NCBI GenBank assembly: GCA_963768835.1 | Contig: CAVYJB010000002.1 | Coordinates: forward strand, 298,466-362,465 | DNA length: 64,000 nt | Source of the DNA: an uncultured bacterium | GTDB lineage: Bacteria > Patescibacteriota > Minisyncoccia > UBA6257 > GWB1-50-10 | Direction of reading: 5' to 3' | The notes under the pieces: generated by a model | What the model saw: only the letters and a program-made list of their open reading frames with translations | What the model was told of the DNA's origin: nothing | Databases searched by the model: none | Program-made: the position numbers and the translations under genes | Part shown: positions 7,869 through 53,955 of the stretch, piece by piece | Layout: each line of letters starts with the position of its first letter | Position numbering within the stretch: the stretch's first letter is position 1

Positions 7869-8273
7869 ATGAGCAAAGCAAAAATCCTTTTAGTAGAAGA
7901 CGATGAGGTGCTGTCTAAGGTTGCCCACGAAGAGCTGACCGAAGCCGGCTTCGAGGTTTTCCAAGCTTATGACGGCGAAGCGGGCTTGGCGATGGCACAC
8001 GAGAAGAAACCGGACTTGATCCTGCTCGATATCCTGTTGCCCAAAAAGAACGGTTTTGATGTTTTGGAAACCCTGAAGAAAACTCCCGAAGCTCGTATCC
8101 CCGTCATCCTGCTTACGATGCTGGGGAGCGACGACGATATCAAGAAAGGCCTGCGTCTCGGGGCCAATGATTATATCGTAAAATCCCAACACGCCCTTCC
8201 TGAAATCGTGGAGAAAGTGAAGGATTTTTTCTCCCAAGAGCAGCACCCCCAGGCTACGCAGCCCAAGCTGTAG
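7869..8273 (+). CDS. Single-domain response regulator (CheY-like receiver, no output domain)
   Basis: 134 aa. KILLVEDDEV...LILLDILLP...ANDYIVKS receiver motifs. Lies 26 nt downstream of the kinase. Confidence 0.9.
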   Translation: MSKAKILLVEDDEVLSKVAHEELTEAGFEVFQAYDGEAGLAMAHEKKPDLILLDILLPKKNGFDVLETLKKTPEARIPVILLTMLGSDDDIKKGLRLGANDYIVKSQHALPEIVEKVKDFFSQEQHPQATQPKL

Positions 8274-8426: not shown

Positions 8427-11400
8427 ATGACGAAGGAGTCTTTTAAGAAAATCGTCGCCTCGGTCCTTGTGACCGTGGCAGCTTTTCTCTTTGCGACTCC
8501 GAGCGCGTTCGCTGCGGTCACGGTTACGGCGGCGACCGGGGGGAGCGCCATAAGCGCGGACACCAACACGACGAACGGCGTCGCCACGTGGACCACGCTT
8601 ACCGGGCCGACGATCACGGAAGCCACCAGCCGGGCCATAAGCACCGGCAGCGGGACGATCGTCTTGACCAGACCCTCGGGGTTTTCTTTCAGCACCAGTA
8701 CCGCAGTCACGGCAACTATTACGAGGGATGCGGGTTCCGGGAGCTGTTTTACCTTTTCTTCCAATACAGTGACGCCCACTTCGAGCACGATCACCTATAC
8801 CCTAACCGCAAGAGACAGCAACGGTAGCACACGATGCCATGTCACGTTTTCCAGTATCCAGGTCCGCCCGACCGCGGGCACACCCCTTGCTTCTGGGAAT
8901 ATCACCAACACTGGCTCCAATGCTTCAGTTCCGAGTGGGGCAACCGACTATGGAACACTGACCGAAGTCGCGGGCGCGAAGAATAAATTGGCCTATACGA
9001 CCCAACCCTCGACTACGGCGACCACGAGCGTGGACTTTACGACCAAGCCGGTCATCACGCTCCAGGATCAGTACGGAAATACAAGGATTTCAGACAGCGC
9101 ATCGACGATTACGTTGTCGCCCGTGCTCTCGAGCCAGGTCTGCGGAGGAACGGCCGGCAGCGGCACGCTCTCTTCAACCCCCGCAAGCGGCGCGGCAGTG
9201 ACCGCAGGGGTCATGACGTACACCGCCATGCAGTATTCCTTCGGCGAAGCGGTGAAAATCTGCGCCATATCTGCCGGAGTCACCTCTGCGCTGAGCAACA
9301 CAGTGACCGTTAACAACCCCATTCCCACCACCAGTAGTATTTCTCCTACCTCCACGGCCGCGGGCGGAACACAATTCACCTTGACAGTGAACGGCACGAA
9401 TTTCGTATCGAACTCTGTGGTGGACTGGAACGGATCGCCGCGAACCACGACCTTTGGTTCCGCGAACCAAGTCACCGCCACCATCACCGCCGCGGATATT
9501 GCAGCTGCGGGTATCGCCTCGGTCAAGGTGGTGAACCCTGCGCCCGGCGGAGGGACTTCGAATGTGCAAACCTTCACCGTTATCCACGCGGTCCCGACTC
9601 TCGCCTCCATTTCTCCGACGTCCACCAATCTCGGCGGAGGCAATTTCACCCTGACCCTTACCGGCAGCGGTTTCGACACGTCTTCCACTGTCGACTGGGG
9701 CGGGTCTTCAAGGGCAACTACATTTGTATCCTCAACCCAGCTCACAGCTACCATCCTATCTACGGATATCGCGGTCTCGGGTACCCATTCCGTGACCGTG
9801 GTGAACCCGACCCCGGGCGGAGGAACATCCGCCAGCCAGACATTCACCGTGGAGCACGCGGCACCGACCCTCACCTCTGTTTCTCCGACCTCGACGACTG
9901 CCGGAGGTTCCCAGTTCACGTTGACGCTGGTGGGCACCGGCTTCGATACCTCCTCGACCGTACAGTGGAACGGCTCTAGCCGCGCGACTACATTCGTATC
10001 TTCTGTCCAACTCACCGCGACGATTACTGCGGGGGATATCGCCTCGGCCGGAACTTCGACCGTAACCGTGGTGAACCCCACGCCCGGAGGAGGAACCTCC
10101 AACGCGCTGACGTTCACGATTCTCGCGGCCGCCTCGAAATTCGTGATTCTTAATCCGGGCGGTGACACGGCCGGCACTCCGCTCACGGTCACTGTTCAAG
10201 CGCAGGACAGCGGCAGCAATCTCGTATCGACCTACAACGGAGGCGTGACGCTCGTGGCGACGGGGACAAGCGTCACCGGGGGAGGGGTGGTGAATATTAT
10301 AAACGGGGTCGGTACGTCCACGGTTTCAACAAATGTTGCCCAAACGGTGGGGCTCACGCTTTCGGACACGCAAAGCACCGGTTTCAATGTTTCCTCGTCG
10401 CAGTTCGTGACATTCGCCCCGGGGCCGATTTCCGCCTTCACCCTCAACCATCCCGGTTCGATTTCGACCGGTGCGCGGGCCGCGTACGTGGTCGGCCGCA
10501 AAGACCAGTACAACAATCCCACGTCGGTGAGCAGCACCGTCGTGTATCTCTACTCCAACTCCACGAGCACCACCAAGTCGTTCTTTGACGCCGCAACCGG
10601 CGGCAACCAAATTTCCTCCACCACGATCCAGGCCGGCAGCACCTCCACTCTTTTCTGGTATTACGAGACCATCGGCGGGACCTATACCATCACCGCCTCC
10701 GACAATTCGACGGCTCCTGACGGTGCGGCGGGTATCGCCGATGCGACGGACAACGTGACGGTCGCTCCCGGTGCGGTCAAATTCGTCTTCGCCAATGCGC
10801 CTGCCTCCGCCAACGCCGGAGACACCGTCACGTTCAATGTGGAGGCGGTGGATTCTTTCGGAGCCGTCGACACCTCCTTCAACCAGGATGTGACGGTGAC
10901 GAAGACGGGGAGCGGGGCGCCGACGGGCGGAGGGCTCGTGACGATCATTAATGGTATGGGGACAAGCACGGTAAGCGACACGCTCGCCGAGACCGTTAGC
11001 CTCGCCCTGCAGGATACGCAGCTCACCGGGCTAAACGTAAGCTCGACGGCGTCGGTCGTCTTCTCGGCCGGACCGGCTACTCAATTTTCCCTCAACCACC
11101 CAGGCAACATGAACACGGGGACCCGTCTCGGCTATACGGTTTCCCGCAAAGACCAGTACAACAATCCCACGTCGGTGAGCAGCACCGTCGTGTATCTCTA
11201 CTCCAACTCCACGAGCACCACCAAGTCGTTCTTTGACGCCGCAACCGGCGGCAACCAAATTTCCTCCACCACGATCCAGGCCGGCAGCACCTCCACTCTT
11301 TTCTGGTATTACGAGACCATCGGCGGGACCTATACCATCACCGCCTCCGACAATTCGACGGCTCCTGACGGTGCGGCGGGTATCGCCGATGCGACGGACA

Positions 11401-12536
11401 ACGTGACGGTCGCTCCCGGTGCGGTCAAATTCGTCTTCGCCAATGCGCCTGCCTCCGCCAACGCCGGAGACACCGTCACGTTCAATGTGGAGGCGGTGGA
11501 TTCTTTCGGAGCCGTCGACACCTCCTTCAACCAGGATGTGACGGTGACGAAGACGGGGAGCGCGAGCGGAGGCGGACTCGTGAATCTCGTGAGCGGCGTC
11601 GCGACAGTCACCATTACGGATATCACGGCCGAAAATGTTGCGCTTGGCTTGCAGGATACGCAGTCAACCGGCCTCGGCGTGACAAGCGTTGCCACGATTG
11701 CGTTTCTCGCCGCGCCAACGCCGGCCTCGGCGTCGGCATCGGGAGCCGCGGCTCCGCAAGGCGCAGCGCAAGGCGTGAAGCCGGGGATCAACATCACCTT
11801 TTCGGGCTGGGTATATCCCGGAGCTTCCATTTCCCTCGTCCGCAAAGATCTGGGATTAGCACAGGCGCCCGTGCTGCAAACGGCGAGCGGAGCGTCCGAC
11901 GGAAGCTTCGCGGTAAATCTGAATAATATTACCCGGCTGACGGGGCAAACCTATCTCCTTATCTTCGCGGATGAGAACGGGACGGTCTCGGAGACAAAGG
12001 CATACAATATCGCGCAAGGGCTGGAGAATTTGGTTAACAACAACATGGTGATTGCCCCGACGGTAGGATTCAGCGGGAATTCCGTGGTGAGCAAGGGGAA
12101 ACCCATTGTCATACAAGGATATGCGACTCCCCAGGCCACAGTGACTGTTTCTGTCGACGGTACAAGCGTGGGCACGGTGACGGTAAACAATGTTTCCGGT
12201 CAGTATCGTTATGTGCTCGACACAAATAGCCTAGCAACGGGGCGGCATTCAGTTGGAGCCACCCAGACGTACGACAAAATCCAGAGCGACAACTCAAGCC
12301 AGCAATCGTTCACGGTGTCTCCTCTCGCCAATCCGAAACTCGACTTGAACGGCGACGGCGTGATTGACATCAAGGACGTAAGCATCTACCTGTCGTACCT
12401 TAAGAATCTTGCTGCGGATGCCACGGGTTACCACACGACCGACCCGAATCTCCTGCGAGTTCTGGATCTAAATGGAGACGGGAAGATCGACGCGCAAGAC
12501 ATTAGCATCTTGCTCCACGCGACTAAGCTGCAGTAG
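8427..12536 (+). CDS. Giant Ser/Thr-rich cell-surface protein with IPT/TIG repeats, 216-aa Ig-like repeats and a C-terminal dockerin module
   Basis: 1369 aa. Signal peptide (MTKESFKKIVASVLVTVAAFLFATPSAFA). At least 3 IPT/TIG-like repeats (SISPTSTAAGGTQFTLTVNGTNFVSNSVVDWNG...). A 648-nt repeat period includes a 419-nt perfect duplicate. The C-terminus has two canonical dockerin Ca-binding segments (DLNGDGVIDIKD ... DLNGDGKIDAQD). Confidence 0.9.
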   Translation: MTKESFKKIVASVLVTVAAFLFATPSAFAAVTVTAATGGSAISADTNTTNGVATWTTLTGPTITEATSRAISTGSGTIVLTRPSGFSFSTSTAVTATITRDAGSGSCFTFSSNTVTPTSSTITYTLTARDSNGSTRCHVTFSSIQVRPTAGTPLASGNITNTGSNASVPSGATDYGTLTEVAGAKNKLAYTTQPSTTATTSVDFTTKPVITLQDQYGNTRISDSASTITLSPVLSSQVCGGTAGSGTLSSTPASGAAVTAGVMTYTAMQYSFGEAVKICAISAGVTSALSNTVTVNNPIPTTSSISPTSTAAGGTQFTLTVNGTNFVSNSVVDWNGSPRTTTFGSANQVTATITAADIAAAGIASVKVVNPAPGGGTSNVQTFTVIHAVPTLASISPTSTNLGGGNFTLTLTGSGFDTSSTVDWGGSSRATTFVSSTQLTATILSTDIAVSGTHSVTVVNPTPGGGTSASQTFTVEHAAPTLTSVSPTSTTAGGSQFTLTLVGTGFDTSSTVQWNGSSRATTFVSSVQLTATITAGDIASAGTSTVTVVNPTPGGGTSNALTFTILAAASKFVILNPGGDTAGTPLTVTVQAQDSGSNLVSTYNGGVTLVATGTSVTGGGVVNIINGVGTSTVSTNVAQTVGLTLSDTQSTGFNVSSSQFVTFAPGPISAFTLNHPGSISTGARAAYVVGRKDQYNNPTSVSSTVVYLYSNSTSTTKSFFDAATGGNQISSTTIQAGSTSTLFWYYETIGGTYTITASDNSTAPDGAAGIADATDNVTVAPGAVKFVFANAPASANAGDTVTFNVEAVDSFGAVDTSFNQDVTVTKTGSGAPTGGGLVTIINGMGTSTVSDTLAETVSLALQDTQLTGLNVSSTASVVFSAGPATQFSLNHPGNMNTGTRLGYTVSRKDQYNNPTSVSSTVVYLYSNSTSTTKSFFDAATGGNQISSTTIQAGSTSTLFWYYETIGGTYTITASDNSTAPDGAAGIADATDNVTVAPGAVKFVFANAPASANAGDTVTFNVEAVDSFGAVDTSFNQDVTVTKTGSASGGGLVNLVSGVATVTITDITAENVALGLQDTQSTGLGVTSVATIAFLAAPTPASASASGAAAPQGAAQGVKPGINITFSGWVYPGASISLVRKDLGLAQAPVLQTASGASDGSFAVNLNNITRLTGQTYLLIFADENGTVSETKAYNIAQGLENLVNNNMVIAPTVGFSGNSVVSKGKPIVIQGYATPQATVTVSVDGTSVGTVTVNNVSGQYRYVLDTNSLATGRHSVGATQTYDKIQSDNSSQQSFTVSPLANPKLDLNGDGVIDIKDVSIYLSYLKNLAADATGYHTTDPNLLRVLDLNGDGKIDAQDISILLHATKLQ
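10496..10914 (+). repeat. Intragenic tandem repeat copy 1. 419 nt, 100% identical to 11144-11562.
   Basis: Identical nucleotide strings (aagaccagtacaacaatcccacgtcggtgagcagcaccgtcgtg ... gacggtgacgaagacggggagcg) sit at a 648-nt offset. Flanks are repeated at lower identity. Confidence 0.9.
11144..11562 (+). repeat. Intragenic tandem repeat copy 2
   Basis: See copy 1. Encodes KDQYNNPTSVSSTVVYLYSNSTSTTKSFFDAATGGNQ...VTVTKTGS twice. Confidence 0.9.
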
Positions 12537-12555
12537 GCTCCGGAACACTGCTATA

Positions 12556-14010
12556 ATGACTAGGATGCCAGGATATAAGAAGTTCATTGTTCTCCTTGCT
12601 GTCTTCTCCGCGTTTTCGTTTAGCGTTGCCAATGCAGCAACGACGCTCTTTTTGACATCGGACACGCCGCAGCCCGTCGTGGGCAATACGGTGAATGTGA
12701 CCGTTGATATCAATAGCGACCAACCTATCAACGCGGCGCAAGGAACCCTCTATTATCCGAGCGATATCCTCCAAGTGGAGCAGGTAACCCACGCAAGCTC
12801 CATCTTCGACATCTGGCTTGCGGAGCCGACCGTGAACGCATCCACCAGCCAGATCTCCTTTCTCGGCGGGAGCACCAACTCGTTCAGCGGTGGTTCGCTT
12901 CCGGTTTTTACCGTTGTGTTCCGGGTCCGCGGGGCCGGAAAGGGGACCGTCGGGTTCAATAGCGCCGAGGTGATAGCTGGCGACGGGACTGGTGCGAACA
13001 TCCTTTCCAGCTCAACCGACATGTCGGTTATGGCGGTTACGCCGGGCGCCACTTCGACGCCAGTGGCTGCCGCGCAAACACCCCCACCCCCGGTGCAGAT
13101 TAAGCGGCCCGCAGCACCCGCCGCAAAGTTGCCAGTCGCGCCGGTTCTTTCTGTGGGTCTATACCCGGACCAGAGCGGGTGGTACAACATCATCCGGAAT
13201 TTCTTGGTGCAGTGGCAATTGCCGCCGGACGTAAGCGACGTTGCGACCGCATTGAATCAGGATCCTCAATTCGACCCGACCGTTTCCGAGGGGCTATTCG
13301 ATAATAAAGTTTTTGGAGCCCTTCAGGAGGGTATTTGGTATCTGCATGTGCGCTTTAAGAACTCGGTCGGTTGGGGACCTACGACGCATTATCGGATCGG
13401 GATCGATACGACGCCTCCGCTACCGTTTATCGCCAAGATAAAAGAAGGGCCAGTGACGGAAGTATCGGCTCCGACGGTACAGTTTTCTACGCTGGCTCAG
13501 CCGTCGGGTATAGCTTTTTATCGGATACTGGTAGATGGAACCAGCGTAGGCATCTCCAGCAGCACCTCGTTTGTCCTCCCTTCGCTTTCTTTCGGTTTGC
13601 ATCAGGTTTCCGTACAAGCGGTGGACGATGCGGGGAACCTGACCGAGAGTCGGCTTTCGGTTACCATCTCCGAGCCGCCGTTCCTGGTGATTGCCGGCCT
13701 TAAGGTTACCGCTCCGATCTTTTTCCTGATCATTATCGGAGTTATTGTGATCGGAATTATCATCGGATGGGGGTTAGGGCGGAAGGTTAAGTCGCGGCGG
13801 CGAGCGCTTGAAACCATGGCGGTCCGAGACGTCGAACAATTGAGCAGTAATGTGATTAGCCAACTCGACGAGATTAAGAAACGGCTTGACGGTATGACGT
13901 CAACCGATTCCGCGCTGCGGATGGAAACGAGCAGTCTCGCCGAACAGGCGCGCGCCACCGCCGAGAAAATAAAGAAATATATCATGCAGGAGATTGAGAA
14001 ATTAAAATAG
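12556..14010 (+). CDS. Membrane-anchored cohesin-domain protein. Signal peptide, cohesin-like domain, one TM helix and a C-terminal cytoplasmic coiled coil.
   Basis: The ORF frame is open from 12472, but the likely start is ATG 12556 (MTRMPGYKKFIVLLAVFSAFSFSVANA). The cohesin-like region reads GNTVNVTVDINSDQPINAAQGTLYYPSDILQVEQV...ISFLGGSTNSFSGGSLPVFTVVFRVRGAGKGTVGFNSAEVIAGDG. TM helix: FLVIAGLKVTAPIFFLIIIGVIVIGIIIGWGLG. Coiled-coil tail. Starts 20 nt after the dockerin protein. Confidence 0.8.
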   Translation: MTRMPGYKKFIVLLAVFSAFSFSVANAATTLFLTSDTPQPVVGNTVNVTVDINSDQPINAAQGTLYYPSDILQVEQVTHASSIFDIWLAEPTVNASTSQISFLGGSTNSFSGGSLPVFTVVFRVRGAGKGTVGFNSAEVIAGDGTGANILSSSTDMSVMAVTPGATSTPVAAAQTPPPPVQIKRPAAPAAKLPVAPVLSVGLYPDQSGWYNIIRNFLVQWQLPPDVSDVATALNQDPQFDPTVSEGLFDNKVFGALQEGIWYLHVRFKNSVGWGPTTHYRIGIDTTPPLPFIAKIKEGPVTEVSAPTVQFSTLAQPSGIAFYRILVDGTSVGISSSTSFVLPSLSFGLHQVSVQAVDDAGNLTESRLSVTISEPPFLVIAGLKVTAPIFFLIIIGVIVIGIIIGWGLGRKVKSRRRALETMAVRDVEQLSSNVISQLDEIKKRLDGMTSTDSALRMETSSLAEQARATAEKIKKYIMQEIEKLK

Positions 14011-14038: not shown

Positions 14039-14461
14039 TTGCCGGAGTGTGATATAATAAATCTGGTGAAAAAACTTAGTAGTGAAAAATACAAAATAGC
14101 TGTCATCGAGGACGATGAAGTCATGTCCAAATCGCTCGTGGGCGAGCTGGAGGACGCTGAATTCAAAGTGGTGACGGCCTTTAATGGGGAGGACGGATAT
14201 TCGCTGGTGCTGAGAGAGAAGCCCGATCTCGTTCTTCTTGATATCGTTATGCCCAAGATGGACGGGATGACGATGATGAAAAACCTGCGCGCGTCCGGTG
14301 AGTACGGCGAACACGTACCGATTATCCTCCTCACGAACTTGAACGCCGACGACAAGACCATGGCGGGCGTCGTTCAGAACGAACCATCCTACTATCTCGT
14401 GAAGTCGAATTGGACCGTTGCCGATGTCGTCCAGAAAGTCCAAGATCGGTTGAGTACGTAG
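14039..14461 (+). CDS. Single-domain response regulator, paralog of 7869-8273
   Basis: KIAVIEDDEV...LVLLDIVMPKMDG...SYYLVKS receiver motifs. The true start may be GTG ~14066. A TATAAT box at 14052-14057 lies inside the annotated 5' end. Confidence 0.85.
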   Translation: MPECDIINLVKKLSSEKYKIAVIEDDEVMSKSLVGELEDAEFKVVTAFNGEDGYSLVLREKPDLVLLDIVMPKMDGMTMMKNLRASGEYGEHVPIILLTNLNADDKTMAGVVQNEPSYYLVKSNWTVADVVQKVQDRLST

Positions 14462-14492
14462 GGGAGAGGAGCCTCAAGGAATCATTGAATAG

Positions 14493-14526
14493 AAAACCAC
14501 CTGTTGCGAGGTGGTTTTTGTTTTAT
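14493..14526 (+). terminator. Rho-independent terminator after the response regulator
   Basis: Stem aaaaccacc/ggtggtttt with an 8-nt loop, followed by a T-run (tttgtttta). Confidence 0.75.
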
Positions 14527-17873: not shown

Positions 17874-17941
17874 ACCCCGCAGGGCTTGTAAGGCTTATTT
17901 TATTTATGTATTTAGGGGCTTGTGGCTCCGCGATTGGGGGA

Positions 17942-17950
17942 TGGTATAAT
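17942..17950 (+). promoter_or_regulatory. Extended -10 promoter element TGgTATAAT upstream of the peptidase gene
   Basis: atggTATAATaggt. The first ATG with a plausible signal peptide follows at 18000. Confidence 0.5.
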
Positions 17951-17999
17951 AGGTACTAAATTTACCAACAGTCGTCCATTAACCAACTTTTATAGTTCC

Positions 18000-19298
18000 A
18001 TGACCACATTTCAGAGAAGGTTCGTGTGCGGTGCGGTGGTGGTGGGTGCCCTTGCGCTCGTGGCGGGCGGGGCGGCGGCGTTCGGGAAGGGAGTCGATCC
18101 GACTCAACTTCTCGCGCAGGAACAGGCGCGATTTGCGCAGATACGCGAGGAGATTCAGGCGCGACTCGCCGGGCTCGCATCCGTGCAGCACCAGAGTGTC
18201 TGTGCGACCGCAGAGGCGGATGGCGTACGATGTCACGCGCGCGTCGTCGTGGATGCCGGCGGGTCACCCCACGTGAGCGTGGCTCCCAGCGGATACGGAC
18301 CTCAGCAGTTTGTCGGTGCGTACGGCCTTGGCGGCGTCGCCGCGTCGAATCCCGGTCCCGTCATCGGTATCGTGGATGCGTACGATGACCCGCGCGCCGC
18401 GAGCGACCTCGCGACCTACAGCTCCACCTTCGGCATCCCGAAGCTGCCGACCTGCAGCGGTTCCATTGCCGCGTCGGGGGCGCCCTGCTTCCAGAAGATG
18501 GGGGAAACCGGCAGCACCGTTTTTCTCCCGCGCTCGAACTCAGGGTGGGATCTTGAGATTTCCCTCGACATCGAGGCAGCGCATGCGGCGTGCCAGAACT
18601 GCCGCATCTTGCTCGTCGAGGCGAACTCCGCGAGCTATACAGATCTCATGAAAGCTGTCGACACGGCGGTCGCGAAAGGAGCGCAGGCGGTATCCGGCTC
18701 CTGGGGCTCGGGCGAGTTCTCGAGTGAGAGCTCCTACGACAGCCACTTCAATAAGAGCGGTGTCGCGTTCACCTTCAGCGCCGGGGACGGGGGCTACGGT
18801 GCTTCCTATCCCGCATCCTCTCCCTACGTCACGGCGGTAGGCGGTACGAGCCTGCTTCTGAACCCCGACGGCTCCTACCTCGGCGAGAGCGCCTGGAGCG
18901 GGACGGGGAGCGGCTGCAGCGCCTACGAGGGGAAGCCCACGTGGCAGAAAGACCCGGCGTGCGCCAAACGCACCGTCACGGACGTTTCGGCGGATGCGGA
19001 TCCGGCGACCGGAGCCGCGGTCTATGACAGCGTGTCGTACTACGGCCGATCCGGATGGTTCCAGGTGGGCGGTACGAGCCTTTCCTCTCCGCTCATTGCG
19101 GCAACCTACGCGCTTCGGGGCGTTCCCGCGGGAACCCACGGCAACTCGCTGCCCTATGCGCAGGGAACCGGGCTTAACCTGCACGACGTGATGACGGGTG
19201 CGAACGGCAGCTGCGGCGGGAGCTACCTTTGCACGGCCGCGGCGGGCTACGACGGGCCGACCGGGCTCGGTACGCCGAACGGGACCAGCGCCTTCTAG
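18000..19298 (+). CDS. Secreted S53 (sedolisin/kumamolisin-like) serine peptidase
   Basis: The frame is open from 17922, but ATG 18000 gives a signal/TM segment (MTTFQRRFVCGAVVVGALALVAGGAAAFG). GIVDAYDDPRAASDLATYSSTFGIPKL and GGTSLSSPLIAATYAL (GTSxxxP without His) fit S53 rather than S8. Confidence 0.8.
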   Translation: MTTFQRRFVCGAVVVGALALVAGGAAAFGKGVDPTQLLAQEQARFAQIREEIQARLAGLASVQHQSVCATAEADGVRCHARVVVDAGGSPHVSVAPSGYGPQQFVGAYGLGGVAASNPGPVIGIVDAYDDPRAASDLATYSSTFGIPKLPTCSGSIAASGAPCFQKMGETGSTVFLPRSNSGWDLEISLDIEAAHAACQNCRILLVEANSASYTDLMKAVDTAVAKGAQAVSGSWGSGEFSSESSYDSHFNKSGVAFTFSAGDGGYGASYPASSPYVTAVGGTSLLLNPDGSYLGESAWSGTGSGCSAYEGKPTWQKDPACAKRTVTDVSADADPATGAAVYDSVSYYGRSGWFQVGGTSLSSPLIAATYALRGVPAGTHGNSLPYAQGTGLNLHDVMTGANGSCGGSYLCTAAAGYDGPTGLGTPNGTSAF

Positions 19299-25932: not shown

Positions 25933-27252
25933 ATGGAGGCGATGAAAGGTCCGCGCGGGTTCGCAACGCTACCGCTTCTCCTCGTGATTCTCGCGGGGGC
26001 TGTCGTGTTGAGTGCGGTCGGGTACTGGGCCGTGCGGTCGGGGACGTACACAACCTTTCTCTCCCAGGACCTTACACCCCCGCTCGGGAGGAACCGCACA
26101 CCCGCCCTTCCGCAGCCGCTGTCTCCTGCGCCCGTTGCAGATAGTATTAACCAGTTTGCTTTCGATTTTCTTCCTCACATCGACAACCCCGACGTGAACG
26201 TTTTTTTCTCCCCCTACAGTATCGCGATGGCGTTCGCGATGGTGGACGAGGGGGCGAGCGGGACGACGGCGCGTGAAATAGAATCAACCTTTCATTTCCC
26301 GGCTGACGCAGGCGCCAGGCGCAGCGCGTTCCAGGAAAGCTACACTGCCCTCAATCAGCCGAGCAACGCCTACACGCTCCACACCGCGAACGCGCTGTGG
26401 GCGCAAAAGGATTATCTTTTCCGCGGCGACTATCTTACCACGGTCGCCACTTTCTATGGCGGGAAAGCGACTAACCTCGACATCGCGGGCGATCCCGAAG
26501 GAGCAAAGAACACTATCAATGCGTGGGTTGCGGGTCAGACACAGGGCAAGATTACGGATTTAATCGGGTCTCTCGACCGCACGACCCGCCTCGTGATCAC
26601 GAACGCGATCTACTTCAAGGGCAAATGGCTCACCCCGTTCAATCCCGGAGCGACCCACCCGGCGGTTTTCCATGTGAACGCGGGGAAAACCGTGGAAGCT
26701 CAGATGATGTCCGGGGGCGAAGACATCCAAGCCCGCTATCTGGAGAACAGCGATTTGCAGGCGCTCTGGCTCCCCTATGAGGGCAAGGACCTCTCGATGC
26801 TGATCCTCCTCCCGAAGCAGAGCGATCTCCCGGCGCTTGAGCGGTCACTCACGCTGCAAACGCTCGCAAATATTCGGACGAACCTTGCCAGCGAGAGACT
26901 CCAAGAGATTGATATTCCGAAGTTCACAATGCGCACTGACTATTCTCTAAAGAACCCCCTCCAACAGCTCGGGATGACCTCGGCGTTCGATTCTTCGGTA
27001 GCCGACTTCTCCGGGATGACAGGGAACAAGGATTTGTTTGTGGGGGACGCCGTACATAAGGCATACGTCACCGTGGACGAGGAGGGGACCGAGGCGGCTG
27101 CTGCGACGGGAGTGGTTGTGTCGGCGGGCGCCGTTGCTGTCCCCAACCCCAAGATTTTCAATGCCGACCATCCCTTTCTGTTTATGATTCAGCAGAATGC
27201 GACCGGCAACATCCTTTTCCTTGGGAAGGTCGTCGACCCTACTCTTCAATGA
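25933..27252 (+). CDS. Serpin (serine protease inhibitor) family protein, secreted
   Basis: 439 aa. N-terminal TM/signal. The C-terminal serpin signature FNADHPFLFMIQQNATGNILFLGKV and a reactive-centre-loop-like EEGTEAAAATGVVVSAGA. Confidence 0.9.
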   Translation: MEAMKGPRGFATLPLLLVILAGAVVLSAVGYWAVRSGTYTTFLSQDLTPPLGRNRTPALPQPLSPAPVADSINQFAFDFLPHIDNPDVNVFFSPYSIAMAFAMVDEGASGTTAREIESTFHFPADAGARRSAFQESYTALNQPSNAYTLHTANALWAQKDYLFRGDYLTTVATFYGGKATNLDIAGDPEGAKNTINAWVAGQTQGKITDLIGSLDRTTRLVITNAIYFKGKWLTPFNPGATHPAVFHVNAGKTVEAQMMSGGEDIQARYLENSDLQALWLPYEGKDLSMLILLPKQSDLPALERSLTLQTLANIRTNLASERLQEIDIPKFTMRTDYSLKNPLQQLGMTSAFDSSVADFSGMTGNKDLFVGDAVHKAYVTVDEEGTEAAAATGVVVSAGAVAVPNPKIFNADHPFLFMIQQNATGNILFLGKVVDPTLQ

Positions 27253-31192: not shown

Positions 31193-31780
31193 ATGCGAGT
31201 GAAAATCCAGCTCCTTGTGTTATTCATACCACTTGTCTTCGGAGGGCTTGCGTCTTCTGTCTCGGCCGATGACGTGCAGATATCGAACGACGTGCATGTC
31301 TCGGCTTCGGCGGGCGGGAACTCCGGCGCAAACGTCACAACAGGCGGAGCCTCGGTGAACGTCTCTATCCACAGCAGCGTGAACGGTACCCCGCTCCTGC
31401 CCGTGGATATCGTGACAACCTCACTTTCCGGAGAGGCCCGCGTGGATGTCCAGAACGACTTCACGAGCGGGACACCCTCTTCAAGCGTCCAGGTTCAGCT
31501 CGGTAATGGGGCTCCACATGTTTTCTGGGGTTTCCCGACTGGCACGCCCCCTATTGCCTCTTCCGGCCTTCCGCGAATATTCCGCCAAAAACCCTCCGTT
31601 CACGCCGTATCAACCTCCACCCCGACCTCTACAGTCCCCGCACCGCAGTTCCACCGCTCTTTTTCTTCCACCACCGGTACGTCGACCCAGTCCCACGGTT
31701 TTCTAGGAGAGTTCCCTCACCTTGCAGACTCTCTCCTCCGTTCTATATGGAACGGCCTCGGTTCCATATTTAAGTTTTAA
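31193..31780 (+). CDS. Secreted hypothetical protein, paralogous motif (SASAGGNSGANVTTGGASVNV)
   Basis: 195 aa. Signal peptide MRVKIQLLVLFIPLVFGGLASSVSA. Confidence 0.5.
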   Translation: MRVKIQLLVLFIPLVFGGLASSVSADDVQISNDVHVSASAGGNSGANVTTGGASVNVSIHSSVNGTPLLPVDIVTTSLSGEARVDVQNDFTSGTPSSSVQVQLGNGAPHVFWGFPTGTPPIASSGLPRIFRQKPSVHAVSTSTPTSTVPAPQFHRSFSSTTGTSTQSHGFLGEFPHLADSLLRSIWNGLGSIFKF

Positions 31781-31790
31781 CCCAACTACC

Positions 31791-34481
31791 ATGACCCATT
31801 TCAATTTCAAGGACATTTTCCGCCGATCTATGACCGTCGGTTTTGCCGCGCTTCTCGCGGTCGCGCTCGTCATTCGGATGCCGGCGCCGCTTGTGCGTGC
31901 GGATGACACCTCTTCCACCCCGCAGGCTCCCGCCGATACCACGACGTCGGCGACTTCCTCGAACGACGCCAGCGCTTCGAATGACGCAAGCGGTTCGGCG
32001 AATACGGGTGGCAACACGACGGATGTAAGCCCTTCCACGGGCGACGCGCAAACGCCGCCCTCCGGAGGTCCTGATGCGTCCTCCACCGGCGGGCAGGTCA
32101 CATCAAATACCACATCGACCACGTCGGACACTACCTCGACGTCCCCGGATACCTCCTCGACATCCGTGGGCGACGCCACTTTGAACACGACGACAACCGA
32201 TGCGTCCTCCACGTCTCCGAGCTCGAGTTCCACAGATTCCTCGGCGACTTCTACTTCCTCCGACACATCCTCCACTCCTGCGGACACGTCTTCTTCCAAT
32301 ACTACGGGTAGCGGTGGAGCCGACACGGGCGCCATCATCACGACGGGGAACGCCGCGGCGGCCGCGAACGTGGTGAACGTGGTGAACACGAACATTTTCG
32401 ACTCGACGGGATTTCTCTCGCTCCTGAACCTCTTTGACCCGCAGATCGGAGATGTAAGCACCGACGGGCTTTCCTTCCCGCTTTCGGGGTGCACGAGCGA
32501 CGGTTGCAGCCTCGGGAACCTTTCGGTGGACAGCCAGAACTCAGGCACTGTCACGAATGATGTCACGGTGGGCGCCACGACGGGGGGCAATACCGCGAGC
32601 GGGACGAGCACGATTACGACGGGGGATGCCGCGGCGGCCGCGAACGTGGTGAACGTCGTGAATTCGAATTTTGTGGATTCGAACTACCTCCTTATGGTGG
32701 TCAACAACTTCAGCCAGTGGATCGGCGACCTCGTGTTCCCCGGAAAATCCTTCTTCACGGGGCTTACGGACGGGAGCGCCTTGCCCGACAACTCCGGGAC
32801 GGGCGGTAGTACGACCATCTCGAACGCGAATGACGCCACCGTGGTCAATAACACGGAGACGACGGCCGCGACGGGTGGGAACACCGTGGACGCCTCGGGA
32901 ACGGCGACCGTAACGACCGGGGATGCGGCCGCGGTCACGAACACCGCGAATCTCGTGAATACGAATCTCGTGAACAGCGACCAGGTTTATATCGTGGTCC
33001 GCGTCTTCGGGAACTGGGCGGGAAATATCTTCAGCACGCCGCCCGGCCTCACGTGGGAGCAAACGCCCTACGGTCTCGTACTGCATAATTCCGATTCCAG
33101 TCCGCTTTTCACGACCGACGCGAGTTCCAGTTCCTGCTGCGATCTTCCCGGGTCCACGTCCAACACAAACACGGCGGATGTCCAGAACAACGTCAAGGTG
33201 TATGCGCTCACGGGCGGGAACCAGGTCAGCGGAGGCGGCGGTTCCATCACGACCGGGAACGCGGGCGCGGTGAGCAACGTGATCAATCTTGTGAACACCA
33301 ATGTGGTGGGGCGGAACGTACTCCTCGCATTCGTGAACATCTTCGGGGACTGGCAGGGGAATCTGGCGTTCGGGAAACCGGATCTCTGGACCGGTATCCG
33401 CGCGGAACTCTCCTCGAACCCGCTTACCGAGAACACGGAGGTGACCTACCATGTGACAATCGCGAACCGGGGCACCGCTGATGCCACCGACGTGGCGGTC
33501 CAAAGCGGCCACAGCGTGACGGGGCTCATGAACGTCTCGGACGCGGGCGGAGGCACGCCGAGCGGTGACGGCGTGGGGTGGACGATTCCCGTGATCCCCG
33601 CGGGTGCCTCGACCACGCTTACTTTCTCTGAGCGCACCTCCGACAATCTTCCCATCGGGCTCACCCCGCTCGTGACGACCGTGACGGCCACTCCCAAGGA
33701 GGACGATGCGGATTCCACCGACAACACGGATGCCGTGAGTCTTCCTCTCGAGCGGACTATCCCGCTCCCCATCGCTTCCCACCTCTCGCTCAAGGAAACG
33801 AACAGCGCGACCGCACCGATAGGACCGGACAGCGATGTGAAGTTCCACTTCACCGTCCGGAACAACGGGGCTGTCCCCGCGACGAGCGTGCTCCTGCACG
33901 AGAAGTTCTACGATCCATGGGGCACGCTTCTTGGCGAGAACACGTGGACCTTGGGGAGCATCGATCCGGGCCACGGGTACGCTGTGGACTATGACACGCA
34001 TTTCGACGCGACCGCCCGCACGGGATACTACACGAGCTTCTCCTCTCTTGAGGGGGCCGATGCCGTGGGTACGATCCAGTCACAGAGCGACATGATCTCG
34101 GGAAGCAGCGTCTACCTCGTGAACCCCGCCGACGCCACACCGCCACCCTCCGCACCGCCTACCGTGCACTTCGTCGCTCCGCAGACGCCCAACCTTCCGA
34201 ACGCCGTGCAGCAGGTGAGTCCGAAGGTCCAACATCTGGTGATTCAGAAGCTCCTTTCCCGCCGGACCCCGCCCGTGCCCATCGGAGGACTCACGGTACT
34301 CGCAGCAGGAGGTACCCCGCCTCCGAAGTCTTTCCAGGATGCGCTTCCGGCGCCCCACGGAATCTTCACCGATTCGACGCTACCGACGGGGAGTATTCTC
34401 CTCGCGTCTCTGCAGCCGGTCCTTCCCACCGATCTCTGGGGGCACTTCACGGATTTCGTCCACTCCATCCTGCAACCCTAG
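31791..34481 (+). CDS. Large secreted protein with TGGNT...TTGDAAAAANVVNVVN repeats and C-terminal DUF11/CARDB-like Ig-fold domains
   Basis: ATG 31791 gives the signal peptide MTHFNFKDIFRRSMTVGFAALLAVALVIRMPAPLVRA. At least 4 repeats follow (ATTGGNTASGTSTITTGDAAAAANVVNVVNSN..., TGGNTVDASGTATVTTGDAAAVTNTANLVNTN..., TGGNQVSGGGGSITTGNAGAVSNVINLVNTN...). Two domains resemble DUF11 (TYHVTIANRGTADATDVAV...; KFHFTVRNNGAVPATSVLL...). Confidence 0.7.
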   Translation: MTHFNFKDIFRRSMTVGFAALLAVALVIRMPAPLVRADDTSSTPQAPADTTTSATSSNDASASNDASGSANTGGNTTDVSPSTGDAQTPPSGGPDASSTGGQVTSNTTSTTSDTTSTSPDTSSTSVGDATLNTTTTDASSTSPSSSSTDSSATSTSSDTSSTPADTSSSNTTGSGGADTGAIITTGNAAAAANVVNVVNTNIFDSTGFLSLLNLFDPQIGDVSTDGLSFPLSGCTSDGCSLGNLSVDSQNSGTVTNDVTVGATTGGNTASGTSTITTGDAAAAANVVNVVNSNFVDSNYLLMVVNNFSQWIGDLVFPGKSFFTGLTDGSALPDNSGTGGSTTISNANDATVVNNTETTAATGGNTVDASGTATVTTGDAAAVTNTANLVNTNLVNSDQVYIVVRVFGNWAGNIFSTPPGLTWEQTPYGLVLHNSDSSPLFTTDASSSSCCDLPGSTSNTNTADVQNNVKVYALTGGNQVSGGGGSITTGNAGAVSNVINLVNTNVVGRNVLLAFVNIFGDWQGNLAFGKPDLWTGIRAELSSNPLTENTEVTYHVTIANRGTADATDVAVQSGHSVTGLMNVSDAGGGTPSGDGVGWTIPVIPAGASTTLTFSERTSDNLPIGLTPLVTTVTATPKEDDADSTDNTDAVSLPLERTIPLPIASHLSLKETNSATAPIGPDSDVKFHFTVRNNGAVPATSVLLHEKFYDPWGTLLGENTWTLGSIDPGHGYAVDYDTHFDATARTGYYTSFSSLEGADAVGTIQSQSDMISGSSVYLVNPADATPPPSAPPTVHFVAPQTPNLPNAVQQVSPKVQHLVIQKLLSRRTPPVPIGGLTVLAAGGTPPPKSFQDALPAPHGIFTDSTLPTGSILLASLQPVLPTDLWGHFTDFVHSILQP

Positions 34482-41253: not shown

Positions 41254-42300
41254 ATGGATCGATTCTTTCTTGGAATGCTCGTGTTCATCCCGCTCGCAGC
41301 GGGAGCTGCCCTGCTGCACGCCGCGCCGACCGCGGTGTTCTTCCTTTCGGCCCTCGCCATCGTGCCGCTCGCGAAGTACATCGGGGAAGCGACCGATGAG
41401 CTTTCCGCCCACACGGGCCCCGGCCTCGGCGGCATTCTGAACGCCACCTTCGGGAACGCCACGGAGCTCATCATCGGCATCATGGCCTTGCAGGCGGGGC
41501 TCCTCGACGTGGTCAAGGCTTCCATCACGGGCTCCATTATCGGGAACCTGCTCCTTGTTCTGGGCACCGCGATGCTCGCGGGCGGCATGAAGTACAAGGA
41601 ACAGGAGTTCAACCGTACGGCAGCCCTCGCGAGCGCCGCGACGATGCTCCTCGCGGTCATCGCGCTCGTTGTGCCCGCGATCTTCATTCAGACGTCCCCC
41701 CAGGTGACCAGCTACACGGTCGAGGAGCTTTCACTCTTCGTGGCCGCCCTCATGGCGGTCGTCTACATCGGGCAGATCCTTTTCACTCTCTGGACCCACC
41801 GCCACCTCTATGTGCAGGAGGTGGGGAAGTTCGAAGCGCGGTGGAGCAAGACGAAGGGCATTCTCGTGCTTCTCGTCGCGACCGTCGCCGTCGCCTTTAT
41901 GAGCGAGATCCTCGTGGGGGCCATCCAGCCCCTGGTGGCGCAGTTTGGCTGGACGGAGCTTTTTATCGGGGTCATCTTCGTCGCCATCATCGGGAATGCC
42001 GCCGAGCACACCTCCGCAGTCGTGATGGCCCTCAAAAACAAGATGGACCTCGCGCTCCAGATCGCCATCGGATCGACGACCCAAGTCGCGATGCTCGTGG
42101 TGCCCGTCCTCGTGTTCGTGGGAGTCCTCGTCGGGCACCCCATGAACCTCATCTTCGACACGTTCGAGCTTATCGCCATCGTCCTTGCGGTCCTCGTCGC
42201 GAACCTCGTCGTCGAGGACGGGAAATGCAACTGGCTTGAGGGGGTCCAGCTTCTCGTCGCCTACGCCATCATGGGTATCGGGTTCTTCTTCCACCCCTAA
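41254..42300 (+). CDS. Ca2+/H+ antiporter (CaCA family, ChaA/CAX-like)
   Basis: 348 aa. Two alpha-repeat signatures, GNATELIIGIMAL and GNAAEHTSAVVMA. Confidence 0.85.
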   Translation: MDRFFLGMLVFIPLAAGAALLHAAPTAVFFLSALAIVPLAKYIGEATDELSAHTGPGLGGILNATFGNATELIIGIMALQAGLLDVVKASITGSIIGNLLLVLGTAMLAGGMKYKEQEFNRTAALASAATMLLAVIALVVPAIFIQTSPQVTSYTVEELSLFVAALMAVVYIGQILFTLWTHRHLYVQEVGKFEARWSKTKGILVLLVATVAVAFMSEILVGAIQPLVAQFGWTELFIGVIFVAIIGNAAEHTSAVVMALKNKMDLALQIAIGSTTQVAMLVVPVLVFVGVLVGHPMNLIFDTFELIAIVLAVLVANLVVEDGKCNWLEGVQLLVAYAIMGIGFFFHP

Positions 42301-42310
42301 CGCGCTCTCC

Positions 42311-42634
42311 ATGATTGAATTTCCGGATTTTCAGAAGGTGGAGCTGAAGGTGGGGAAGATCCTCACCGCGGAGCGCGTCGAAGGCTCCGACAAGCTCGTG
42401 AAGCTCTCGGTGGACCTCGGCGGCGAGACCCGGCAGATTGTGGCGGGCATCGGGAAGAAATACACCCCCGAGGAGCTCGTGGGCCGGCAGATTATCGTGG
42501 TCGCGAACCTCGCCCCTCGCATGCTCTTGGGGCTCGAATCGAACGGGATGCTCCTCGCCGCGCACGACGCGGAGGGCGGCCCCATCCTCCTCATGCCCGA
42601 CAAGGAGGCTCCGCCTGGAAGCACTGTGAGTTAG
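42311..42634 (+). CDS. csaA: tRNA-binding domain protein (CsaA/Trbp111-like OB fold)
   Basis: ATG 42311 (MIEFPDFQKVELKVGKILTAERVEGSDKLVKLSVDLGGE..QIVAGI) matches the EMAP/CsaA tRNA-binding domain. Confidence 0.8.
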   Translation: MIEFPDFQKVELKVGKILTAERVEGSDKLVKLSVDLGGETRQIVAGIGKKYTPEELVGRQIIVVANLAPRMLLGLESNGMLLAAHDAEGGPILLMPDKEAPPGSTVS

Positions 42635-42648
42635 AAGGATTGGGAGAG

Positions 42649-42666
42649 TTCGAATCCAAGGCCCCC
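42649..42666 (+). repeat. Truncated copy (TTCGAA-TCCAAGGCCCCC) of the cassette-associated direct repeat, 15 nt after the csaA stop
   Basis: Shares TTCGAA and TCCAAGGCCCCC with the four full repeats downstream. Confidence 0.6.
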
Positions 42667-42678
42667 ACGCCGACCAGG

Positions 42679-42686
42679 TGTATAAT
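42679..42686 (+). promoter_or_regulatory. Extended -10 element (TGTATAAT) 14 nt upstream of cassette gene A
   Basis: caggTGTATAATaagc then ATG at 42701 with a very short leader. Confidence 0.5.
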
Positions 42687-42700
42687 AAGCTTAATTCACT

Positions 42701-43384
42701 ATGACTGTAGTTCTGACGATTGCTTTTCTAATTGTAGGCTGCCTCATCGGATACATATACGCGAGCCGTAGATTTCAGGAAGAGAAAAATCAGGCACTAA
42801 GAGATTTAGGACTACAGAAAGAAGAAGCGCAAAGGGTCTTAGCGCAGCAGAAAGAACAACTACTAAAGGAAGCGGAGCAGGCGAAAGAACAAGAGCTGAG
42901 AGAATTAGGACAACAGAAAGAGGAGGCACAGAAGGAATTGGCGCGTCTAAAGGAAGAGCTGCAAAAAGAAGCCGAGCTGCAGAAAAAAAGGACGCTCGAA
43001 GGTTCGAGAGCTGGCATCAAGGGAAGGGTTGCTGAAAACCTTGCTTTGCTCATCCCTGATTTTCAAGAACAACATCCTGATTTAAAGATCTCTGAGGCGA
43101 GGTTCACAGGAGAGCCGATTGACTATCTATTCTTTGAAGGAATCGACGAAAAGAACATTACGAAAGTCATTTTTCTCGAAGTTAAGTCTGGGAAACATCC
43201 TCAACTAAACCCGACCGAAGCCAGCCTAAAAAATGTCATAGATGACGCGGAGACCAAGGGCGCGAATGTGATTTGGCGAGAATACATAGTTCATGAGCCA
43301 GAGATTCAGGCTATTCCGCCACCGGAAGTTCCAGGAGAAAGCACTGAAGCTCCTACCTCAATACCCCCTACCGAAAAAGCCTAG
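42701..43384 (+). CDS. Membrane-anchored coiled-coil protein with a C-terminal Hjc-like PD-(D/E)xK nuclease domain (COG4741 / Endonuc_Holl-like)
   Basis: 227 aa. N-terminal TM (VVLTIAFLIVGCLIGYIYA), a heptad/charged coiled coil, and a C-terminus (GRVAENLALLIPDF...PIDYLFFEGIDEKNITKVIFLEVKSGKHPQLNPTEASLKNVIDDAETKGANVI) that fits the Hjc catalytic D...E.K arrangement. Low-GC region. Confidence 0.65.
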   Translation: MTVVLTIAFLIVGCLIGYIYASRRFQEEKNQALRDLGLQKEEAQRVLAQQKEQLLKEAEQAKEQELRELGQQKEEAQKELARLKEELQKEAELQKKRTLEGSRAGIKGRVAENLALLIPDFQEQHPDLKISEARFTGEPIDYLFFEGIDEKNITKVIFLEVKSGKHPQLNPTEASLKNVIDDAETKGANVIWREYIVHEPEIQAIPPPEVPGESTEAPTSIPPTEKA

Positions 43385-43401
43385 CTCACCGAAGCCTCCA
43401 A

Positions 43402-43429
43402 AATCGTTCGAACATCGTCCAAGGCCCCC
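43402..43429 (+). repeat. Cassette-associated direct repeat copy 1 (AATCGTTCGAACATCGTCCAAGGCCCCC)
   Basis: 17 nt after the gene A stop and 4 nt before the gene B start. Confidence 0.9.
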
Positions 43430-43432
43430 AAC

Positions 43433-44227
43433 ATGGAATCTTATAACCCACAAGACTTCAAGAATTTGGCAATTTCCGCGGCGGAACAAGCCGGAGATGT
43501 TTTAATGCGTCACTATGGCAATGTCGTCACGGAATTTAAAGAAGGGGGCTTTGATATGGTATCGATAGTTACCAAAGCTGACCGAGAATCTGAGGACTGT
43601 ATCGCCGGGGCTATTAGAAAGCACTTTCCCGCTCACGGCATTTATGGAGAAGAGGGAACTGACGAGAAAAGTGGAGCTGAGTATATCTGGTATATAGATC
43701 CACTTGATGGTACTTCAAATTTCACAAGAAACATTCCACTTTTTGGCATATCAATTGGTCTCATAAAGAACGGCCGTCCCATCGTTGGTGTTTTGCACTT
43801 TCCGGCACTTAAGCTTCTGCTTAGCGCCGAAGATGGGAAGGGTGCTTTTGCAAATGGCACAAAAATTAAGGTTTCGACGCGGTCTCTGGAACAATCCTTG
43901 TACTACTCTGGGGGAAAGTATAAATCAGACTTCTTGAACCAACTTCAACCTGATATTGCATCGGCTGTTGGGTTGATAAAAATTATTGATGCCAGCAGCT
44001 ACGAATTCGCACAAATCGCTATGGGTGATGCCGAGATATATTTCCTGAAAAATGTACCGTATGATGTCGTTGCCGGCATCTGCGTTGTTCGTGAAGCTGG
44101 AGGGGTCGTAAGCGATGCTGAAGGAAATGAATGGCAGCTCTCTTCAAAAGAAATCTTAGCTACCACCCCAAGCTTGCATCCAAAGATATTATCCCTCCTT
44201 CGCGGCCGAGAGTCTACGAATTCATAG
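43433..44227 (+). CDS. Inositol monophosphatase / SuhB / CysQ-family phosphatase
   Basis: 264 aa. GEEGTDEK...WYIDPLDGTSNF and the C-terminal DVVAGICVVREAGGVVSD IMPase-family motifs. Confidence 0.85.
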   Translation: MESYNPQDFKNLAISAAEQAGDVLMRHYGNVVTEFKEGGFDMVSIVTKADRESEDCIAGAIRKHFPAHGIYGEEGTDEKSGAEYIWYIDPLDGTSNFTRNIPLFGISIGLIKNGRPIVGVLHFPALKLLLSAEDGKGAFANGTKIKVSTRSLEQSLYYSGGKYKSDFLNQLQPDIASAVGLIKIIDASSYEFAQIAMGDAEIYFLKNVPYDVVAGICVVREAGGVVSDAEGNEWQLSSKEILATTPSLHPKILSLLRGRESTNS

Positions 44228-44231
44228 CCAG

Positions 44232-44257: not shown

Positions 44258-44271
44258 GCAATGATACGAAC

Positions 44272-44859: not shown

Positions 44860-44860
44860 G

Positions 44861-53953: not shown

Positions 53954-53955
53954 CA

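Follow-up and report, generated by a model that had tools for sequence, protein, structure and literature searches.

How is a giant secreted protein kept at the cell surface when its gene is followed, after a gap of 19 nucleotides (nt), by a gene for a membrane protein with a cohesin-like domain? The question is raised by a stretch of 64,000 nt, hereafter the window, from contig CAVYJB010000002.1 of an uncultured, ultra-small member of the Patescibacteriota (assembly GCA_963768835.1), in which a 1369-amino-acid (aa) protein ending in a dockerin (the giant) and a 484-aa cohesin protein (the anchor) are encoded next to each other (Table 1). The original prediction, made from the sequence of the window alone, proposed that the two form a self-contained cell-surface anchoring pair. 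Here we argue that the dockerin of the giant is likely to be held by the cohesin of the anchor, and, with fair confidence, that the module as a whole displays a fibrillar adhesin or coat, tethered by its dockerin to a cohesin anchor that crosses the membrane and is probably coupled to a phosphorelay.

The C-terminal module of the giant is a true dockerin. The open reading frame (ORF) lies where it had been placed, and the score for Dockerin_1 (PF00404), 34.3 bits with the full protein and 39.5 bits with its C-terminal 100 aa alone, is above the cutoff of 22.9 bits, which bears out the claim that this secreted protein ends in a dockerin. The two Ca-binding loops, DLNGDGVIDIKD (positions 12342–12377) and DLNGDGKIDAQD (12465–12500), are 41 residues apart, and are the only motifs of this kind recovered by a six-frame regular-expression scan of the window. 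Each is an EF-hand-like loop (DxNxDGxxxxxD) with a helix after it, as seen from the motifs and from the helices of the AlphaFold2 (AF2) model, i.e., the duplicated arrangement of a type I dockerin. All four loop aspartates are invariant across 78 sequences, and Pfam detects Dockerin_1 in 77 of the 78 orthologous giant C-termini. Two dockerin subtypes (SIYLSYL and WSIFLSRW) occur in the family. Compared with the PDB, the family profile finds as its best matches the solved cellulosomal and Clostridium perfringens dockerins (4fl4_A, 2y3n_B, 2jnk, and 2vn6); it also matches generic EF-hand Ca-binding proteins.

The partner domain, which the original prediction had called cohesin-like, is recognized by fold as much as by sequence. 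Pfam Cohesin (PF00963) scores 24.1 bits on aa 41–158 of the anchor, exactly the gathering cutoff of 24.1 and thus borderline by sequence alone; scores within the family reach 37.3 bits (L036) and 44.9 bits (P0262), and about half of its members have a precomputed PF00963 match. The AF2 model of the anchor, built from a 34-member family alignment, has a mean predicted local distance difference test (pLDDT) score of 85.5, with values of about 85–96 over aa 29–161, the cohesin. In a Foldseek search of the PDB, the best match of this model is the C. perfringens cohesin–FN3 construct 2w1n (E 1e-10). Among single cohesin modules, the TM-scores of superposition on the model are 0.76 (2vo8, root-mean-square deviation (rmsd) 3.3 Å), 0.73 (6kge_A, 2.8 Å), 0.70 (4dh2_A, 2.8 Å), and 0.70 (6kgf_C), the rmsd over the superposed modules ranging from 2.8 to 3.4 Å. 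Because of this fold evidence, we accept the cohesin identity despite a hidden Markov model (HMM) score at threshold, and the fold proposed for the downstream product stands. Four polar residues of the domain, N59, Q62, D143, and N148, are invariant in the family alignment.

When one genome per species was searched for relatives of the anchor, at least 148 genomes proved to encode one, nearly all of them of Patescibacteria. More than 120 relatives are full-length, with 35–67% identity; all named sources are Patescibacteria, the names including Paceibacterota, Minisyncoccia, Parcubacteria, and Magasanikbacteria, and several relatives already bear the name 'cohesin domain-containing protein'. 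Profile searching against 1.84 billion representatives reveals a large family, most of the best 150 matches (each representing a 50%-identity cluster) being full-length proteins of 470–610 aa. We retrieved 80 loci (20-kb loci), which together with the window make a set of 81 (the homologous loci total 1.27 Mb); 80 of the 81 are evaluable for the upstream gene (L070 has no upstream DNA), and 77 have downstream DNA. The 80 loci come from 80 different assemblies, which points to one copy of the anchor per genome. We note that L023, L057, L058, and many 'binchicken' loci are titled Methylococcaceae, Gammaproteobacteria, or 'Candidatus Saccharibacteria'; given their gene content, these labels are probably binning or label artefacts.

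A dockerin-ended protein is encoded directly upstream of the anchor, or one gene off, in 79 of the 80 evaluable loci. In 76 of the 81 loci, the gene directly upstream on the same strand encodes a homologue of the C-terminal 330 aa of the giant, and 74 of these 76 proteins carry two Ca-loops within their last 90 aa. In L026 and L045, the upstream giant is dockerin-ended but more divergent, and in L066 a receiver gene is inserted between the dockerin gene and the anchor. With family HMMs, each locus in the 1.27 Mb yields a single dockerin and a single cohesin, as does the window (one of each in 64 kb), and no enzyme domains are found in the pair; the idea of a self-contained anchoring pair, put forward for a single locus, is much strengthened. 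The reciprocal search, from dockerins in metagenomes, covers a small and arbitrary sample. Among the matches listed, most are generic dockerins of other bacteria, which have no anchor and receiver downstream, whereas all four family-type Ig (immunoglobulin-like)–dockerin loci (E ≤ 1e-26) have both. Two loci outside the family, L116 (4593–5838) and L126 (1–1081), contain a generic dockerin ORF followed by an ORF with a weak cohesin-HMM match (E 6e-4 and 4e-7, respectively), and may be more distant dockerin-then-cohesin pairs of other lineages. From gene order and domain content, the pair and its small two-component set (see below) is a predicted conserved surface module of the Patescibacteria (candidate phyla radiation, CPR), of which the window holds the local copy.

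If the two proteins bind each other through these domains, their divergence might be expected to run in parallel. In 67 genome-paired sets, the distances between cohesins follow those between the dockerins of the giants (r 0.62) and between the Ig-like base domains before them (r 0.70) more closely than those of the other anchor domains, namely the middle, FN3, and tail domains (r 0.39–0.55), shared phylogeny and unequal rates being confounders of all these values. After partialling out the other domains of the anchor, the dockerin–cohesin correlation remains at 0.46–0.56. The distances fit a cohesin–dockerin interface. They also bear on the alternative that the partners cooperate without any cohesin–dockerin contact, the EF-hand pair binding Ca2+, the wall, or a host ligand, and the cohesin-like sandwich being structural or carbohydrate-binding. 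Such an arrangement would suit a cohesin score that only reaches threshold and a dockerin profile that also picks up generic EF-hand proteins. It would leave unexplained the strict one-to-one adjacency of just these two domain types in some 80 species, the strongest co-variation of the cohesin being with the C-terminus of its partner, and the nearest structural matches being bona fide dockerin-binding cohesins; the invariant N59, Q62, D143, and N148, in addition, suggest a conserved (predicted) binding site. We consider the contact-free arrangement improbable, and favour a tether in which the cohesin would bind the dockerin.

The remainder of the anchor would place the cohesin outside the membrane. 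The signal peptide, cohesin, and single transmembrane (TM) helix that had been predicted are all present, as is an all-helical cytoplasmic tail, together with two further beta-sandwich domains that had gone unmentioned. The first of these, in the middle of the protein, shows the highest conservation within the anchor family; the second, FN3-like, has a profile that matches the chitinase FnIII domains 6bt9 and 1k85. The positive cluster RKVKSRRR directly after the TM helix indicates an N-out/C-in topology, and both the giant and the anchor have signal peptides (hydropathy and model). Pfam finds no SLH domain in the anchor, which is attached instead by the TM helix and the cytoplasmic tail. The tail has two nearly invariant residues, D425 and Y475, and is detected by its own HMM in 74 of the 81 loci. 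Three relatives (P0204, P0208, and P0222) have a bacterial SH3_3 domain, typically a peptidoglycan binder, inserted in the extracellular stalk. Relatives of 800–900 aa were suspected to be dockerin–cohesin fusions, which was rejected: they are two cohesin–TM units in tandem. In P0223, P0237, P0252, P0261, P0262, and P0270, a short signal peptide–cohesin–FN3–TM unit precedes a full anchor; such proteins may truly have two TM helices, or two genes may have been fused in gene calling.

What the anchor would hold is a long, non-enzymatic protein. Residues T, S, A, G, and V make up 60% of the giant, which is acidic and low in Cys, and neither Pfam nor NCBIfam finds a catalytic domain in it; the non-cellulolytic context, with no glycoside hydrolase on the dockerin protein, is thus as the original prediction had it. 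Its description as an IPT/TIG-repeat protein needs narrowing: three IPT/TIG-like repeats are present, and the stalk outside them consists of other Ig-like modules. Within the stalk, 419 nt are directly duplicated (10496–10914 and 11144–11562, 100% identical, offset 648 nt = 216 aa); either a module was copied very recently, or the assembly has been collapsed or expanded there. Tandem Repeats Finder reports nothing in the giant gene, the 648-nt period exceeding its limit. We note that the giant gene is interrupted by a break in a second, independent assembly of this genome (L001). Related stalk modules occur in 52 loci in variable copy number, and the shortest orthologous giants have 474 aa, the longest more than 3300 aa. 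The C-terminal end is constant. The AF2 model of a 329-aa C-terminal fragment comprises two beta-sandwiches, with strands at residues 80–168 and 180–258, and then helix–loop–helix segments, and this Ig–Ig–dockerin base is present in 77–79 of the 81 loci. Foldseek matches the model to Ig-like adhesin modules, including those of SiiE and the BSP domain of Bap; it returns generic Ig-like arrays only, the small dockerin not being singled out.

This layout is, as judged from sequence, of the fibrillar adhesin type, with a variable tip, an extensible stalk, and a constant anchoring end; the repeat stalk, distinct tip, and cell anchor that characterize such proteins are all present in the architecture, and adhesion itself is predicted. 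An alternative function keeps the tether and makes the fibre an envelope or S-layer-like coat protein, the cohesin anchor being the membrane tether of a surface lattice. A coat would be in keeping with a single copy per genome and very broad conservation, with the residue composition of the giant, with the S-layer structures 7ptp and 8cka among the Foldseek matches of the Ig arrays, and with the wall-binding SH3_3 domain of some anchors. We regard it as unlikely, since a length that varies this widely together with a clade-specific tip is the pattern of fibrillar adhesins, not of lattice-forming proteins, Pfam finds no SLH or other known lattice domain, and linkage to a sensory kinase is unexpected for a constitutive coat. 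The presence of cohesin and dockerin modules might in itself suggest a minimal cellulosome, in which a scaffoldin organizes dockerin-bearing polysaccharide-degrading enzymes. The anchor, by contrast, has one cohesin where a scaffoldin would have several, and is held by a TM helix, by neither SLH nor sortase; there is no further dockerin in the 64 kb; and no catalytic module or carbohydrate-binding module (CBM) is found by Pfam in nine giants (the window's and those of eight other species), which have Ig-like, InlB-B-repeat, or similar domains only. With neither a multi-cohesin scaffoldin, nor carbohydrate-active enzyme (CAZyme) or CBM cargo, nor SLH or sortase attachment, a cellulosome is rejected as extremely improbable.

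Besides the pair itself, the only conserved neighbours are signalling genes. The GAF-PAS kinase and two receivers that had been said to bracket the pair are as described, except that the first response regulator (RR1) is no orphan, being paired with the kinase after a 27-nt gap. The kinase (HisKA E 1e-16, HATPase_c E 2e-29 in Pfam) has no TM segment. Both receivers are without an output domain, and are thus CheY-like. The strongest terminator-like hairpin of the region sits after the second (RR2), which suggests, from consensus sequence, that the giant, the anchor, and RR2 form one transcription unit. In 52 of the 81 loci, a histidine kinase (HK)-type gene is no more than 5 kb from the pair. 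Of 13 window genes compared with the 80 homologous loci, the kinase type recurs in 52 and the receiver type in 70, and the eleven others in 0–1. A receiver gene is directly downstream of the anchor in 51 of the 77 loci with downstream DNA. Receivers encoded after the anchor and those encoded after the kinase fall into separate groups (nearest-neighbour concordance by position 83/93), and both groups keep the acidic pocket, the acceptor Asp, the Thr/Ser, and the Lys.

The main argument for a signalling role comes from three loci (L034, 5166–7121; L040, 1693–3675; L068, 2739–4646) in which the tail of the anchor is replaced by a PAS domain (PAS_9, E 1e-15 to 1e-17), giving the order cohesin–Ig–TM–PAS; the 9 kb of downstream sequence available for L040 show no separate kinase or receiver gene. 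By this fusion and by synteny, we infer that the cytoplasmic end of the anchor is linked to PAS-type signalling. The idea of coupling through the tail gains indirect support from the two facts that kinase and receiver are the only other conserved neighbours and that PAS replaces the tail in three species. We therefore hold it a tentative proposition, a little short of even, that the anchor couples to a phosphorelay. A more specific version, on which we place less weight, would make the anchor a transmembrane transducer, relaying occupancy of or load on the fibre through the TM helix and tail to the kinase and the CheY-like receivers. In that doubtful but specific scheme, PAS would take the place of the tail in some species, and the stimulus could be, e.g., host-cell contact.

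The kinase and receiver genes might, on the other hand, adjoin the pair for regulatory or historical reasons only, the anchor being a passive tether whose tail touches neither product. Kinase adjacency is indeed incomplete, with the kinase upstream in some loci and downstream in others, and the kinase is soluble and has GAF and PAS sensors of its own. Moreover, in transposon sequencing (Tn-seq) of Southlakia epibionticum, a cultivated Saccharibacterium, the kinase is non-essential, whereas the dockerin protein beside it is essential (PMC10633639). Against mere adjacency, the receivers have no DNA-binding output and so cannot directly regulate transcription of the pair, the tail sequence is conserved with near-invariant residues, PAS is fused in its place in three species, and other neighbour genes do not recur. 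A purely passive anchor is a minority possibility in our judgement, to be kept in mind, and coupling of some kind is carried forward as part of the favoured module.

In the arrangement that we propose, the Sec-secreted, non-enzymatic fibre would begin with an N-terminal tip that varies between loci, continue as a repeat stalk that is longer in some loci than in others, and end in the universal Ig–Ig–dockerin base. Its C-terminal dockerin would hold it to the cell, non-covalently and Ca-dependently, through the single cohesin of the anchor encoded downstream, the two being probably co-transcribed. A Pro-rich linker and the two beta-sandwich domains would raise the cohesin, presumably through the cell wall, and the anchor spans the membrane once, with its conserved helical tail on the cytoplasmic side. 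The fibre itself would probably serve to attach the cell to a host or substrate, or form a surface coat. The tail would probably communicate with the soluble PAS histidine kinase and the CheY-like receivers, such that fibre occupancy or load is sensed or fibre display is controlled.

Several observations weigh against this proposal. At one evaluable locus, L063 (8820–11623), the order is kinase–receiver–anchor, with no dockerin gene upstream; its cargo gene may be elsewhere or lost. The dockerin and cohesin counts span the 64-kb window and the 20-kb loci, and several cargos might share one anchor. Not every locus has a kinase or a receiver beside the pair (52 and 70 of 81 do, respectively), and many contigs are truncated. 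The essential dockerin protein of Southlakia, SEML1_0315, has no adjacent cohesin gene, and the word 'cohesin' is absent from the annotation tables of that genome (PMC10633639). To these come the borderline sequence score of the cohesin and the confounders of the distance correlations. The domain identities, the topology, the one-to-one synteny, and the association with kinase and receivers are established; Ca-dependent cohesin–dockerin binding, an adhesin role, and signalling through the tail are the steps that are predicted.

Table 1. The locus in window coordinates; residue ranges refer to the giant or the anchor
Feature	Position	Strand	Basis
Soluble sensor histidine kinase, GAF-PAS-HisKA-HATPase_c, 557 aa	6169–7842	+	Pfam; no TM/hydrophobic segment
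Receiver-only RR1, 134 aa, 'post-kinase' type	7869–8273	+	Pfam Response_reg E 2e-25; 27 nt after kinase
Giant: predicted secreted fibrillar surface protein, 1369 aa	8427–12536	+	ORF; N-terminal signal peptide is the sole hydrophobic feature
Giant: N-terminal 'tip' domain (aa 30–190), clade-specific	8514–8996	+	jackhmmer, 3/81 loci
Giant: three IPT/TIG-like CoaZ_rpt_PGGG repeats (about aa 298–561)	9318–10109	+	NCBIfam NF058597, E 7e-89, 3 stretches
Giant: stalk repeat region, with 419-nt direct duplication inside	10496–11562	+	Repeat search and script
Giant: two conserved beta-sandwich (Big_6-like) domains, base before dockerin	11784–12320	+	AF2 model, locus profile, Foldseek
Giant: dockerin (aa 1306–1362), two Ca-binding loops, helix after each	12342–12512	+	Pfam, motifs, profile vs PDB, AF2
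Anchor: type I membrane anchor, 484 aa (signal peptide, cohesin, linker, beta-sandwich, FN3-like, TM helix, tail)	12556–14010	+	
Anchor: cohesin domain (aa 28–161)	12637–13038	+	Pfam at cutoff; AF2; Foldseek
Anchor: middle beta-sandwich (aa 198–283), GIWYLHVRFKNxVGWGP motif	13147–13404	+	Invariant alignment columns; AF2
Anchor: FN3/Big_13-like domain (about aa 290–372)	13423–13671	+	Pfam Big_13/PKD weak; profile; AF2
Anchor: single TM helix (aa 386–408)	13711–13779	+	Hydropathy; AF2 helix 386–446
Anchor: conserved cytoplasmic helical tail (aa 409–484), predicted helical hairpin	13780–14007	+	Alignment, AF2
Receiver-only RR2, 140 aa, 'post-cohesin' position	14039–14461	+	Pfam; 28 nt after anchor
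Terminator-like hairpin, 11-bp stem and T-run, strongest of region	14492–14519	+	Consensus scan only

Elsewhere in the window, 31722–34481 (forward strand) encodes another large protein of predicted surface location, with 919 aa, a DUF11 repeat, and no dockerin. A full-length serpin (Pfam E 3e-116; 25933–27252, forward strand), a kind of protein uncommon in bacteria, is encoded a few kb from an S8 subtilase (17922–19298). The G + C content, elsewhere 0.55–0.66, drops to 0.44–0.51 at 42000–47000 and 53900–64000, stretches that may be horizontally acquired islands. A glycosyltransferase/DUF2206 cluster occupies 53.9–62.8 kb, and a weak, sub-threshold terminase-like ORF lies at 47418–49049.

Patescibacteria hold a large share of bacterial diversity, are mostly uncultivated, and are thought to live attached to hosts; to our knowledge, how they attach and how they sense attachment is largely unknown. 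The module suggests a lineage-wide device for attachment and possibly for sensing, as a gene set with clear boundaries, apparently single-copy, in at least 148 species genomes, and its variable outward tip could carry host specificity. It offers a testable cohesin–dockerin interface and a plausible route to intracellular signalling, and its modules are small and easily expressed, which makes binding, specificity, and mechanostability accessible without cultivating the organisms. Cohesin–dockerin biology would thereby be widened beyond the scaffolding of enzymes, to include a surface tether that is anchored in the membrane and possibly signals. Were the anchor to prove a transducer, the module would be an attachment-sensing two-component system based on cohesin and dockerin, and a hallmark of Paceibacteria-type CPR bacteria. 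In the incompletely searchable literature, we found no published description of a CPR cohesin–dockerin module (an absence of evidence), only a one-line mention of the Southlakia dockerin protein. The type of anchoring is already known; new here is its use with a transmembrane, possibly signalling anchor across a major uncultivated radiation.

Among known systems, fibrillar adhesins such as SiiE and Bap resemble the giant in their variable tip, copy-variable repeat stalk, and constant anchoring end. Their attachment to the cell is typically covalent or provided by a secretion apparatus, whereas the anchor here is a separate cohesin membrane protein. The domains themselves have counterparts in C. 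perfringens. The cohesin–FN3 construct of GH84C (2w1n), the best structural match of the anchor, likewise has a cohesin followed by FN3, the NagH dockerin (2jnk/2ozn) is matched by the dockerin profile, and both contexts are non-cellulolytic. The C. perfringens modules, however, ride on secreted glycoside hydrolases, whereas neither partner here is an enzyme and the cohesin is membrane-anchored.

Within the same radiation, SEML1_0315 of S. epibionticum is described as an essential (Tn-seq), Patescibacteria-enriched core envelope protein with a dockerin domain and Ig-like domains (PMC10633639). In the cluster SEML1_0315–0318, this dockerin protein is directly downstream of a PAS kinase, a 130-aa receiver-only regulator, and a tRNA (PMC10633639, Table S1). 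The order of HK, RR, and dockerin protein is that of the window, the likeness being one of gene order and description only.

The comparison that reaches furthest is with CttA and ScaE of Ruminococcus flavefaciens. There, too, a non-catalytic dockerin protein is encoded beside the gene for a single-cohesin anchoring protein (PMC2721979, PMC4266597), and the resulting complex, a type III X-module–dockerin (XDoc) bound to a cohesin, ties the bacterium to its substrate and bears mechanical load (PMC4266597). The differences are several. ScaE is described as cell-wall anchored, whereas the anchor here crosses the membrane by a TM helix and continues into a conserved cytoplasmic tail; in the cellulosome, ScaE has ScaB as a further partner, whereas the relation here appears to be one-to-one; the present module comes without CBMs or a cellulose context; the linkage to kinase and receivers has no counterpart in CttA–ScaE; and the lineages are Patescibacteria and Firmicutes, respectively. 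In its working, CttA–ScaE is nevertheless the closest analogue, and the likeness may extend to the domain next to the dockerin: the conserved Ig-like beta-sandwich that precedes it here, whose divergence tracks that of the cohesin (r 0.70, phylogeny-confounded), has the position of the X-module, which in type II/III X-module–dockerin dyads contacts the cohesin.

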